From an uncultured Actinomycetes bacterium (GTDB lineage Bacteria; Actinomycetota; UBA4738; HRBIN12): 64,000 nt of DNA. Position 1 is the first letter of the stretch, and each line of letters opens with the position of its first letter. A program made the position numbers and the translations under genes. The DNA is taken from the NCBI GenBank assembly GCA_963710985.1, contig CAVQCI010000005.1, positions 111,892 through 175,891 of the forward strand, given 5' to 3'. The notes beneath the pieces were generated by a model that saw only the letters and a list, made by a program, of their open reading frames with translations, was not told the origin of the DNA and did not search any database. Shown here one piece after another: positions 14,336 to 41,269 of this stretch.

Positions 14336-14408
14336 AGGCGCGTAGCTCAACTGGCAGAGCACCGGTCTCCAAAACCGGGGGTTGGGGGTTCAAGTCCCTC
14401 CGCGCCTG
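14336..14408 (+). tRNA. tRNA-Trp(CCA)
   Basis: AGGCGCG/CGCGCCT acceptor stem, TAGCTCAACTGGCAGAGC D arm, CCGGT-CTCCAAA-ACCGG anticodon arm, GTTCAAGTC T loop; directly before secE; 3' CCA not encoded. Confidence 0.96.
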
Positions 14409-37937: not shown

Positions 37938-38044
37938 TCCGGGCGGGGGAGGGGGGTCGCGATCGCTTCCTCAGGTCACAGTAGTCGGACTACACCCGGA
38001 TGAGGGCCACGGGGTTCCGGTCCGCGCCTAGCGTCCATCGCACG

Positions 38045-38757
38045 ATGACGCTCACCCACGCGCCCCTGAGCGAGGTCGCCCCGCCCGGCGAGCTGCGCGT
38101 CCTCGTCGCGCTCGAGCAGGTCCTGTTCCGCGAGGCCGTGCGGACCGCCCTGGAGCGCGAACCCGATCTCTCGGTGGTCCTCGCGCTCGATTCCTGCTCG
38201 TCGATCGTCGATGAAGCCGGGCGCGTCCGGCCGCGCGTCGTGGTCATCGACGCCGGCCTGGGGGGCGGGAGCGTGATCGACACGGTGCGGGCGCTCCGCG
38301 CGCAGCCGCACCCTCCGGCGGTCGTCTGCATCGGGGTGGGCAACGACCATCGGTTCGTCGTGCAGGCGATCCGCGCAGGCATGAACGGGTACGTGACGCG
38401 CGGCTCGCCGGTGACCGAGCTGATCTCGGTGGTGCGCGCGGTCGATCGAGGAGAGCTGGCGATCCCCGAAGGATGCTCGCGGGCGTCGTCCAACGTCTCC
38501 TCGGCCGCGACGACATCCGCGAGGATGCCCTCGCGCGGATCTCACGCCTGACGCAGCGAGAGCGCCGGGTGCTGGCGCTGCTGTCCAAAGGCGCCACGAA
38601 CGCCACGGTCGCCTCGGCGATGTTCATCAGTCCGCTCACGGCGCGGACCCACATCCAGAACGTGCTGACGAAGCTCGGCGTCCATTCGCGCCTGGAGGCC
38701 GCGATGTTCGTGGCGCAGAACGACATCGTCCACGAGCTCGAACGCGCGCCGCGCTGA
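38045..38757 (+). CDS. LuxR/NarL-family response regulator; frameshift near 38470
   Basis: Receiver-like N-terminus; LTQRERRVL...ISPLTARTHIQNVLTKLGVHSRLEA. Confidence 0.85.
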
Positions 38758-38877
38758 GCAGGGGATCGGTGCATCCATCCGTCCGGAGTAGCGAACTACA
38801 CCGTTTCGACCGTTCCCGTCCCGCGCCCGCTCCTTACCGTCGGCGCACAACGTGCCGGTGGAACGGGGAGGGTATCG

Positions 38878-39531
38878 ATGACGGTCCTGCGCGACGCTCC
38901 CGGGGTCGTCCCGACCCGGGCCGCGGATGACATCTGCACGCTCTACCTGGTGCGTCACGGCACCACGACGATGAACGTCGAGAACCGCTACCGCGGGCGC
39001 CGCGACGTACCGTTGGACGCGCAGGGGTACCAGGATGCGGTGGACGCCGCGCGGTACCTGTCGGACGTCGGCGTGCACGCCGTCTACACGGGGCCGCTGC
39101 GTCGCACGATCGCGACGGCGCAGATCATCGCGGACGAGGTCCGTGTCCCCGACATCCGGATCCTGCACGGCCTCAACAACATCGACTACGGGGCGTGGGA
39201 GGGCCTGACCGCCAGCGAGGCGCAGATGTACGACCCGCAGGCCTTCGAGACCTACCGGACGTCTCCCTCGACCGCGGTGTGTCCGGCGGGGGAACGTCTG
39301 CGCGACGGACAGCAGCGGGTCCTGGACGCGATCGCGCTGATGGCGGCCCGTCACCGGGGCGAGACCGCGGTCGCGGTCACGCACGCGGTCATGATCCGGC
39401 TCGCCGTCGCCGCGATCCAGGAGGTCGAGGGAGAGCAGTGGCGGCTCCCGCTCGGTCGCGGGTCCCTGTCGAAGTTCGAGATCGGCGAGGACATCACGAT
39501 CTCGCTGCCCGAGGGCGGAGACGTCGACTGA
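38878..39531 (+). CDS. Histidine phosphatase (phosphoglycerate mutase family)
   Basis: LVRHGTT, DYGAWEG, AVTH. Confidence 0.9.
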   Translation: MTVLRDAPGVVPTRAADDICTLYLVRHGTTTMNVENRYRGRRDVPLDAQGYQDAVDAARYLSDVGVHAVYTGPLRRTIATAQIIADEVRVPDIRILHGLNNIDYGAWEGLTASEAQMYDPQAFETYRTSPSTAVCPAGERLRDGQQRVLDAIALMAARHRGETAVAVTHAVMIRLAVAAIQEVEGEQWRLPLGRGSLSKFEIGEDITISLPEGGDVD

Positions 39532-39533
39532 GG

Positions 39534-40418
39534 ATGGCGTTCCGAACCGAGCGGCGGTCGGCGCCGGACACGAGGCCGGCGAGCGATGACGACGTGGTGG
39601 CGCGCCGCGGCGCGCATCCACGGCACGTCCTCCGCCGCTACCTCTCGGAACGTCCGTCGCTGTACCTGCCGTTGGCCCGCCGTCGGTACCCGGGACCGAG
39701 CCCGATGGTGGTCACGCGCGACACGGACCTGGTGATCGACGGGTACACGCGCTCGGCGACGACCTACGCGGTGTACGCCTTCCAGGTCGCGCAACCGCGG
39801 CCCGTGCGTCTGGCGCACCACCTGCACGCCCCTGCGCAGATCCTCGCCGCGGCGCGGTGGGGCATCCCGACGATCCTGTTGATCCGCGACCCCGAAGGGG
39901 CGGTGCTGTCGCAGGTCGTGCGTGAGCCCGGCGTCACCGTGCGCGACGCGCTCGTGTCGTGGCGGCGCTTCTACGAGGTGACGCTTCGCCGCCCCGGCGC
40001 GTTCGTCGTGGGGGAGTTCGCGCAGGTGACGACCGACATGGGCCGCGTGACCCGCGACCTGAACGAGAGGTTCGGGACGTCGTTCGCGGAGTTCGAGCGG
40101 ACGCGGGGCCACGAGCGGGAGGTGCTCGAGCTCATGGGGGAGCGACCGACCACGATCCCCGAGTGGTCGTCGATCCTGCTCGGCTTCGAGTCGGGTCTGG
40201 TCTCGCGGGAGGAGGTGCTCGCGGCGCGCGAGCGCTTCCGGGGCCGATCGGACCGCGGCGCGCGACCGACGTGGGTCCCGTCGCAGGAACGCGACGCGGC
40301 GAAGGAGCGGTTGGGGGCCGAGTGGGCCGATCGTGCGCTCGATCGGGAGCGGGCGCGCGCGTATCGCGTCTATGAAGACGTGGTGGCGCGGTCGCATTTC
40401 GGTTCCCACGTAACCTAA
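39534..40418 (+). CDS. Putative PAPS-dependent sulfotransferase
   Basis: DGYTRSATTY (5'-PSB loop-like) and LIRDPEGAVLS (3'-PB-like). Confidence 0.65.
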   Translation: MAFRTERRSAPDTRPASDDDVVARRGAHPRHVLRRYLSERPSLYLPLARRRYPGPSPMVVTRDTDLVIDGYTRSATTYAVYAFQVAQPRPVRLAHHLHAPAQILAAARWGIPTILLIRDPEGAVLSQVVREPGVTVRDALVSWRRFYEVTLRRPGAFVVGEFAQVTTDMGRVTRDLNERFGTSFAEFERTRGHEREVLELMGERPTTIPEWSSILLGFESGLVSREEVLAARERFRGRSDRGARPTWVPSQERDAAKERLGAEWADRALDRERARAYRVYEDVVARSHFGSHVT

Positions 40419-40675
40419 GGACGGCGGGAGCAAGGCCGGTTGGGCGATGACTCCCACCGCCCTCTTGTCCTCTGGACGGGCGTTGCGTTCGGGACCCCGC
40501 TCGAGGGTATCGACGGCCTGACTTGCCTGCGCCGTCGTTCGCCCATCCTCGTTGTTCCGGGCATGGAGGGCCCGAGTGAACCCGAGCCCACCGTGCCGAC
40601 GCGCGACCGGTTCATGACGGGTGCGACCCGTACGGTGCGTGCTGCCTTCTTCTTGCGGTTCCGATTACACGCCAG
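40419..40675 (-). ncRNA. Candidate structured non-coding RNA (~260 nt), family not recognised
   Basis: Six stems whose imperfections are mostly G-U pairs on the minus strand; upstream TTGACG-17 nt-TAAGTC; no credible ORF. Confidence 0.6.
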
Positions 40676-40840
40676 ACCGACTTAAGGGCCGTACCGGCGG
40701 TCGTCAACGTTGGGTGAAACATCCGACACCTTCGTGGAGGGCGGAACCATACAGCCCGAGGTGCCACCCGATGAGTGAGGAGACCCCGCGATGACTGAGA
40801 ACGTCGGGTGGGCGGGAGGCGGCGCTGGTAGCGTCGCGCC

Positions 40841-41269
40841 ATGGCTCGCGCGACACCGGTCCTCGGTCCCTCGCAGCGCGAACGTCTGCTGGACCTCGTG
40901 CTGTGGACCGTCGCAACAGTTTCGCTCGCGTTGACGTCCGTGTTGTCGTTCTTCGCAGAGCCCCCCGGTTCGGGGTTCGGCCACGGCATCGACAAGGTCG
41001 AGCACGCCTTGGCCTACTTCATGACGACGCTCGCGGTGCTGCTCGCCGGGGTGTGGCGACCCGGACGCGGACTGGGCCGGTTCCCGGGCGCAAGGTGGTG
41101 GATCGCGGGCGCGGCGCTGGCCGCCGGCGCGCTGATCGAGGTCCTGCAGAGCGCGCTCACCACGAACCGCCAGGGCGACGTGCGCGACTGGCTCGCGGAG
41201 CTGGTCGGTGTCGGGCTGGCGCTCCTGGCGCTCCGCCTGCTCGAGCGGCGGGAACCCGCCCCGTCCTGA
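40841..41269 (+). CDS. VanZ-family membrane protein
   Basis: DKVEHALAY, IEVLQ, RQGDVRDWLA. Confidence 0.85.
   Translation: MARATPVLGPSQRERLLDLVLWTVATVSLALTSVLSFFAEPPGSGFGHGIDKVEHALAYFMTTLAVLLAGVWRPGRGLGRFPGARWWIAGAALAAGALIEVLQSALTTNRQGDVRDWLAELVGVGLALLALRLLERREPAPS

Follow-up and report, generated by a model that had tools for sequence, protein, structure and literature searches.

The QUAD/Sib repeats of E. coli, which occur with the Ibs toxins, are a repeat family that was later shown to consist of small-RNA genes. The pneumococcal BOX, RUP and SPRITE elements are, in the account of them in PMC10969869, short, non-coding, multicopy and structured, are built of interchangeable modules and occur clustered or nested, and SPRITE is presented there as an element resembling a rho-independent terminator. 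Certain MITEs carry promoters or small RNAs, such as Correia in Neisseria and QMITE1/2 in Coxiella (Cbsr3, Cbsr13 and Cbsr16), according to the sections of PMC10969869 and PMC5896051 that deal with them. REPINs, as outlined in PMC3337134 and PMC3116915, consist of two short REPs in inverted arrangement, are served by RAYTs and are numerous.

In this study, a structured element on the minus strand of a 64,000-nt stretch of DNA from an uncultured Actinomycetes bacterium (GCA_963710985.1, contig CAVQCI010000005.1; hereafter the window) was analyzed by folding, genome comparison and covariance models. The original prediction had described a structured RNA that would act in trans, and had noticed neither repetition nor insertion. 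The element is not a single dedicated RNA gene, since it is one of 15 related copies in its own genome and arrived at this locus as a 429-bp insertion. It is certain that the feature is a modular, non-coding, strand-specifically structured repeat that was inserted here, and it should be annotated as a repeat and not as a unique RNA gene.

Structure of the element

The hexamer pair, leader, hairpins, junction and 12-bp stem that had been predicted are all present on the minus strand at the positions in Table 1, and every one of the predicted helices appears in the ViennaRNA minimum-energy fold. The six G-U pairs, counted by hand on the sequence and the fold, are also there: two in the long hairpin, one in the closing stem of the junction, one in the ACCCU/GGGGU helix and two in the 12-bp stem. 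In the 5′ part of the fold, P1 (40642-40633 paired with 40609-40599) encloses P2 (40631-40617, ACGGGU/ACCCGU) and an unpaired CAUGAAC. The minimum-energy and centroid folds are both multi-branched, with five separate helical domains.

Table 1. Features of the element and its flanking genes in the window
Feature	Coordinates	Strand	Basis or remark
Repeat unit, long form (leader module, P1-P2, P3, 3′ extension)	40399..40727	-	blastn against own genome
Promoter-like pair (TTGACG 40707-40702, 17-nt spacer, TAAGTC 40684-40679)	40679..40707	-	
Purine-rich leader, variable module	40643..40678	-	10-copy alignment; four differences from C3a
P1-P2 domain	40599..40642	-	near-invariant among family-1 copies
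P3, long terminator-like hairpin	40560..40597	-	structure kept, sequence variable
Three-way junction of 3′ extension, closed by GGAUGGGCG/CGCCCGUCC	40474..40548	-	seen in folds
12-bp stem of 3′ extension	40419..40462	-	seen in folds
3′ tail of unit	40399..40418	-	repeat boundary at 40399; overlaps last codons and stop of 407-aa gene
Convergent flanking gene, 407 aa	39195..40418	+	GC3 0.9-1.0 in frame
VanZ-like flanking gene, upstream of and divergent from element	40841..41269	+	frame signal, weak PF04892 match

For a 262-nt stretch of the element, the minus strand gave a folding energy of -123 kcal/mol (z = -1.97, with nine of 200 shuffles as good), and the plus strand one of -115.5 kcal/mol (z = -0.27, with 71 of 200 as good). 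The full 274-nt unit (40399-40672, minus) reached -132.3 kcal/mol (z = -3.14), and none of 200 shuffles was as stable; the sister copy C3a gave a similar result (z = -3.37). At its 3′ end the unit has GGAACCGA (40397-40406), which repeats the leader word GGAACCGC (40653-40662). In the full-length fold the nucleotides of this end are paired to the 3′ arm of P1, as an alternative to P1, and the pairing is weakened in one of the three long copies.

Signals resembling a promoter and a terminator were compared between copies. The window copy and C3a show 20 differences, five of them in the 17-nt spacer and none in the hexamers (P about 0.002, calculated post hoc). A scan of 40200-41000 for the sigma-70 consensus gave no promoter-like site, and the TAAGTC hexamer fails the sigma-70 criteria because its last position is not T; likewise, no promoter or terminator was called by the consensus scan at the element in the window or at two other copies. 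Three classes of 5′ leader occur among the copies. Those of class C are without the -10-like hexamer, and those of class B have about 100 conserved, foldable nucleotides upstream of it, an arrangement that suits a promoter there poorly. Past P3, the tails of nine distinct short copies are enriched in U on this strand only (34 of 90 positions, hand count), and in the three long copies none of the first ten positions is U. Inspection by eye found no conserved antiterminator pairing for P3.

Repeat family in the source genome

The source genome (3.7 Mb in eight contigs, completeness 81.6%) holds 15 related copies, ten of family 1 and five of a diverged family 2. The closest to the window unit (40399-40727) is C3a (C3:1052484-1052810), at 94% identity over 330 blastn columns. 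Partial copies lie at C3:1002620-1002864 (C3b; 90%, spanning 40399-40642) and C6:356912-357081 (79%, spanning 40571-40724), and the core of about 65 nt (40578-40642) recurs in six further places on contigs C3 and C1. A covariance model of this core, R1, recovered ten copies and three weak matches in the source genome, the latter being members of a second, diverged family of the same layout; a second model, R2, built from the R1 copies and these weak matches, detects all 15. The family-2 copies are C3:1003369-1003459, C3:1049560-1049650, C1:412686-412779, C1:1450096-1450191 and C3:1074186-1074280. Two of them precede identically oriented family-1 copies by about 500 nt.

Common to all copies is a core in which P1 encloses the 6-bp P2 and the unpaired CAUGAAC and is followed by P3. 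The 5′ domain of family 2 differs, with a GGGG..CCCC hairpin and then UCUCC, whereas P3 and its GUCU tail are closely similar. In the short copies, of about 100-250 nt, P3 is followed by a tail such as GUCUUCGUC. The 170-nt 3′ extension, with the three-way junction and the 12-bp stem, is confined to the window copy, C3a and C3b, so that the length of about 260 nt predicted for the window element is owed to a part that is rare in the family. Four C3 copies carry a second upstream module, which folds with G-U pairs on the same strand.

The segments that bear copies on C3 and C1 (L016, L017, L021 and L022) are low in GC (64-68%) and share further short repeats of 50-140 nt with 75-93% identity. 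They also share segmental duplications (0.6-1 kb); a pterin dehydratase-glyoxalase fusion gene is among the duplicated sequences, and copies lie at the edges of such duplications, adjoining other short repeats. The two C1 copies lie within an 815-bp repeat that adjoins ChrB-like genes. The neighbours of the copies have no common function (ChrB-like, pterin dehydratase-glyoxalase fusion, PIN/Phd, ADH and hydrolases), and by our own GC3-based gene calls six of about 12 classifiable copies are antisense to both neighbours, with the downstream one convergent. A riboswitch or attenuator leader was considered and rejected, as no consistent class of same-strand downstream gene exists across the copies. 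At the window locus, as had been predicted, no gene lies downstream of the element on its own strand.

The original prediction also treated the region as non-coding. A conserved open reading frame was looked for and none is shared between the copies: the only recurring ATG-led frame is short and polar and is lost in some of them. Coding on either strand was rejected; an extended-looking tblastn match failed when compared frame by frame.

Covariation and strand selection

Pair counts were taken from an alignment of the 15 matches (13 distinct rows, all paralogs of one genome). In this alignment, which was fitted to the model and whose paralogous rows make the figures lean towards structure, 95.5% of 352 core cells hold standard pairs, compared with 36-47% when the partners are slid by 1-3 columns. 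Both sides have changed in 13 of the 29 pairs (5/9 in P1, 2/6 in P2 and 6/14 in P3), the changes in P1 and P2 being found in diverged copies, and none of 500 shuffles reached any of five structure measures. The cells that are not Watson-Crick comprise 30 G-U in ten pairs, one A-C and 15 others, and of the forward strand and its reverse complement, the former gives the more stable fold in nine of ten copies. The G-U excess and the forward-strand stability indicate that the fold belongs to a minus-sense RNA or to a single DNA strand of that sense. A structure selected on the minus strand, which the original prediction had proposed from G-U pairs in the window copy, is thus upheld by 30 G-U against one A-C cell and by compensatory changes in P1, P2 and P3.

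The two parts of the core are constrained differently. Among eight distinct family-1 copies, P1-P2 varies in three of 41 columns (mean identity 97.7%), whereas P3 varies in 22 of 41 (mean identity 76.6%) with its pairing kept. In the alignment used for the pair counts, 96.5% of the P3 cells are paired. P1-P2 is therefore constrained in sequence and P3 in structure only.

For the 3′ extension, the structural evidence is much weaker than for the core. The three-way junction is identical in all three copies that have it and thus yields no covariation signal, and the 12-bp stem shows three one-sided changes among these copies, all of which give G-U pairs on the minus strand. No pair in the extension has changed on both sides in the three copies.

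The locus and its empty site

The window has a GC content of 71%. Between the two flanking genes, codon-position GC gives no strong coding signal. The 407-aa gene matched no Pfam family. It has an ortholog with 69% identity over residues 1-398 of 407 in G002, which is the closest congener holding one. The VanZ-like gene matches PF04892 with E = 6.4e-05 and 24 bits, short of the curated cut-off of 30.1. Three paralogous matches to the 407-aa gene occur in the source genome (C6:81540-82304, C5:95164-96021 and C5:87020-87442), and in the congeners G009, G010, G032 and G061 there are two or three adjoining matches per contig, some with in-frame stops.

In G002, locus L035 aligns with 38000-40389 (81%) and with 40819-41250 (72.5%) of the window, and only 27 nt lie between the two aligned parts. 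This marks the 429 bp at 40390-40818 as an insertion (or a replacement), in which the 329-bp repeat unit is flanked by 9 nt and 91 nt. The GC content of the segment is 65.5%, against 72.4% and 71.8% in the flanking genes, and resembles that of the 64-68% segments in which other copies lie. The two flanking genes, parted by the insertion in the window, are about 45 nt apart in G002, a spacing which indicates that the insertion splits a probable operon. The 407-aa gene, whose plus-strand frame ends at 40418, also takes its final codons and its stop from the inserted DNA. A probable two-gene operon in a polysaccharide block was thus divided, and the C-terminus of one of its genes rewritten.

Comparison of the junctions with the empty site of G002 revealed no target-site duplication, the insertion having replaced the 27 nt. 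Ten inverted-repeat pairs lie in 40370-40850, but none links the two ends of the unit (40399/40727) or those of the insertion (40390/40818), and terminal inverted repeats are thus absent. Within the 91 nt carried by the insertion, a GAGGAG box is followed after 7 nt by the ATG of a 47-aa ORF (40791-40934, plus), which overlaps the start of the VanZ-like gene in a different frame.

Mobility genes

In the source genome, no match was found to Y1_Tnp/RAYT (PF01797; the control matched 6 of 14 genomes), to the TnpB zinc ribbon (PF07282; control 8 of 14), to IS110 (PF01548; control 6 of 14) or to DDE_Tnp_1; for Y1_Tnp/RAYT, the completeness of 81.6% means that absence is not proven. In the Y2_Tnp search the control matched nowhere. 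The mobility genes that were found are tyrosine recombinase matches at three C1 sites and one rve match on C7. None of these lies beside the copies on C3, C5 or C6, and at one C1 site, which is separated from copy C1b by about 7 kb, there are only fragments. Guide-RNA transposon ends (TnpB omega RNA or IS110 bridge RNA) were rejected as an identity, there being no TnpB or IS110 gene in the genome or beside the copies, and so was a retron, for which the only RVT_1 match has 24 bits, lies under the cut-off and is distant from any copy.

Searches in other genomes and databases

The original prediction recognized no RNA family in the element, and Rfam agrees, with no match to it. At gathering scores, Rfam 15 found only a tRNA (14336-14408) in the whole window; with E up to 10, the segment 40100-41100 gave only a 16.6-bit match to a frameshift element, by chance, and six other copies gave nothing relevant. 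ARAGORN reported no tRNA or tmRNA at the element.

The distribution searches were samples and pattern scans and not exhaustive, and their 'not found' tallies include the unpublished genomes G017, G041, G316, G342 and G426, on which no positive result depends. Within the genomes and collections searched, no confirmed relative of the family came to light. With blastn, the 461-nt region gave only matches of 30-42 nt (E from 2.8e-4 to 9.8e-4, in five genomes) among 60 relatives. Model R1 found nothing in 37 congeners or in 150 genomes of the order, and R2 nothing in 37 congeners or in 150 genomes of the class. In five chosen genomes only G002 matched, with 27.5 bits; the match is to a perfect palindrome of a generic kind, with scores on both strands. 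This palindrome (L133, G002:C4:282756-282833) is a GC-rich hairpin, GAAGGCCCCGGG..CCCGGGGCCUUC, that resembles P3 and probably represents a type of bidirectional terminator native to the genus.

Scanning with a 22-base core pattern gave no match in contigs of species-representative genomes or in metagenome contigs. A second pattern had 27 matches in the genome contigs and 16 in the metagenome contigs, and since R1 scored none of these 43 at E up to 1, they are attributed to chance. In viral contigs two patterns matched one and nine stretches, and six R2 matches (17.5-18 bits) lay away from the pattern sites; blastn against plasmids and phages gave no match. ChrB-like homologs were drawn from 400 genomes of the phylum, and the 24 loci surrounding them gave a single match, of 14.8 bits (E = 0.99).

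In the source genome itself, a 17-nt perfect complement to the CAUGAACCGGUCGCGCG stretch, which covers unpaired and 3′-arm nucleotides of the invariant domain, occurs at C3:445108-445124 (plus), inside a permease-like CDS (..ILARDRFMPSQF..). By our own estimate, roughly 0.01-0.1 such complements are expected by chance, and this one is a probable chance match and not a target.

Discussion

The copies form a multicopy family with a strand-specific, covarying core that codes for no protein, and one member of it entered the window locus by insertion. The reading that each unit is a modular small-RNA gene that travels as DNA together with low-GC accessory segments is the most likely one and stands, in our judgement, at even chances. 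The 15 copies with their covarying core, the empty site, the near-invariant P1-P2 beside the variable P3, the conserved hexamers with a variable spacer, the U-containing tails past P3 and the upstream module folded on the same strand were counted for it. Counted against it were the mosaic modules and the gene-less 429-bp insertion, typical of DNA repeats, the consensus scans that called no promoter or terminator, the leaders of classes B and C, the extension with no compensatory change, the comparison of paralogs only, and the neighbours with no common function. Transcription, the promoter, termination at P3, action in trans and any target are inferred. The leader module, with its promoter-like pair, would drive a minus-strand transcript opening with the near-invariant 41-nt P1-P2 domain, which would be the sequence-specific working part and might be recognized as a handle by a protein or by a pairing partner. 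In the short copies the transcript would end at P3 with its U-containing tail. In the three long copies, including that of the window, the 170-nt extension would replace this tail, and at the window transcription may continue to about 40410; the resulting RNA, about 270 nt long, would face the convergent gene at its 3′ end.

If the units are transcribed, they constitute an uncatalogued small-RNA family of an uncultured actinobacterium, in which a domain fixed in sequence stands beside a terminator kept in structure only, and they would show how such RNA genes enter core operons. A more far-reaching proposal, which we rate as unlikely, is that of a regulatory-RNA cassette system private to accessory DNA, consisting of the 41-nt handle, the terminator and exchangeable modules, that copies itself into new sites, among them a core polysaccharide operon. 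If true, it would point to an undescribed route of mobilization, one that needs no inverted repeats, target duplication or recognizable transposase.

The main rival explanation, less likely than the small-RNA gene, is that of an interspersed repeat at the DNA level, REP/BIME-like or MITE-like, whose single-stranded hairpins serve a recombinase or transposase, or which spreads by recombination, any RNA being incidental. The mosaic build and number of the copies, their position in low-GC segments, at duplication edges and beside other short repeats, and an insertion of foreign GC whose empty site survives in a congener are all in keeping with it. The invariant hairpin domain could reflect the need of a site-specific enzyme, and wobble pairing on one strand, read as G-T, also suits a strand-specific single-stranded DNA intermediate. 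However, the element has neither terminal inverted repeats nor a target duplication, no Y1_Tnp/RAYT, TnpB-type, IS110 or DDE_Tnp_1 match is present in the genome as assembled, the mobility genes on C1 and C7 leave the C3, C5 and C6 copies without one beside them, and the copies number only 15. Furthermore, a DNA repeat leaves unexplained the one-sided U-tail at P3 and the conserved hexamers around a variable spacer. If the copies are nevertheless DNA repeats only, they provide an example from a high-GC actinobacterium of structured repeats that are known mainly from Proteobacteria and Firmicutes.

It appears decidedly unlikely that the units are cis-acting punctuation cassettes whose hairpins act as terminators or insulators for neighbouring genes, and the local form of this explanation, by which the reverse complement of the 12-bp stem ends the 407-aa gene in the window and uncouples the VanZ-like gene, we hold to be just as unlikely. 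On the plus strand this stem does begin 5 nt past the stop codon and is followed by UCUUGUCCUCU, the genes that the insertion separates probably formed an operon, and P3 resembles the palindromic hairpin of terminator type in G002. However, in the window two pairs of the stem are A-C mismatches when read on the plus strand, the three changes in it among the copies keep pairing on the minus strand only, about half of the classifiable copies are antisense to both neighbours, and the invariant P1-P2 domain is left unexplained.

The size and layout of the window copy had also been likened to RNAs of the 6S/Ms1 type. RNAs of this type fold into a long irregular hairpin, shaped like a rod and opened by a central bubble, and as housekeeping RNAs they occupy a single locus and are conserved across relatives. 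The element shares with them its size range, at about 270 nt, a stable fold and the lack of a same-strand downstream gene, but it matches no Rfam model for them, is branched rather than a rod with a central bubble, is present in 15 copies and was found in its own genome only, with none in 37 congeners. The likeness thus fails for each feature that can be tested (model, fold shape, copy number and presence in congeners), and a single-copy, trans-acting RNA that binds RNA polymerase is highly improbable here.

Least tenable of all is a small protein-coding gene on either strand as the cause of the conservation, for although an ORF of 66 aa exists on the minus strand (40415-40615) and one of 81 aa on the plus strand (40440-40685), and the frame equivalent to the plus sense is open for 85 aligned residues in two other copies, the 66-aa ORF shifts frame among copies, the plus-strand frames of the window copy all contain stops, its similarity to C3a is near equal in three frames (89-92%, tblastx), C3a and C3b agree less in amino acids (76%) than in nucleotides (90%) in their sole shared open frame, and there is no Pfam match.

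The QUAD/Sib family likewise has several near-identical intergenic copies, each of them possibly a stand-alone small RNA with its own terminator; the present element differs in having no conserved small hydrophobic ORF opposite it. REPs and REPINs, as they are outlined in the cited accounts, are similarly intergenic, palindromic and multicopy, with a hairpin conserved in sequence, whereas the element combines two different hairpin domains in one orientation, has 15 copies and is accompanied by no Y1_Tnp match. With MITEs in general it has in common its small size (329 bp), the lack of coding capacity, the 15 copies and an insertion polymorphism relative to a congener, but not the terminal inverted repeats or the target-site duplication. 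To Correia and QMITE, as portrayed in those sources, it is closer, being a small insertion without genes that has promoter-like hexamers, folds stably, is polymorphic between relatives and may be a source of small RNA, although it has neither terminal inverted repeats nor a target duplication, and no parent insertion sequence was found. In comparison with the descriptions of BOX, RUP and SPRITE, it is also short, non-coding, multicopy, highly structured and modular, and P3 with its tail recalls SPRITE; it belongs to another phylum, is unrelated in sequence, has 15 copies and, unlike the elements so described, carries a near-invariant 41-nt domain of two helices ahead of the terminator-like hairpin. 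By analogy, and as far as these descriptions extend, the element would seem to work most like BOX, RUP and SPRITE and like the MITEs that bear promoters or small RNAs, such as Correia and QMITE. It is an uncatalogued element of a familiar kind, modest in significance unless expression or a new route of mobilization is shown.
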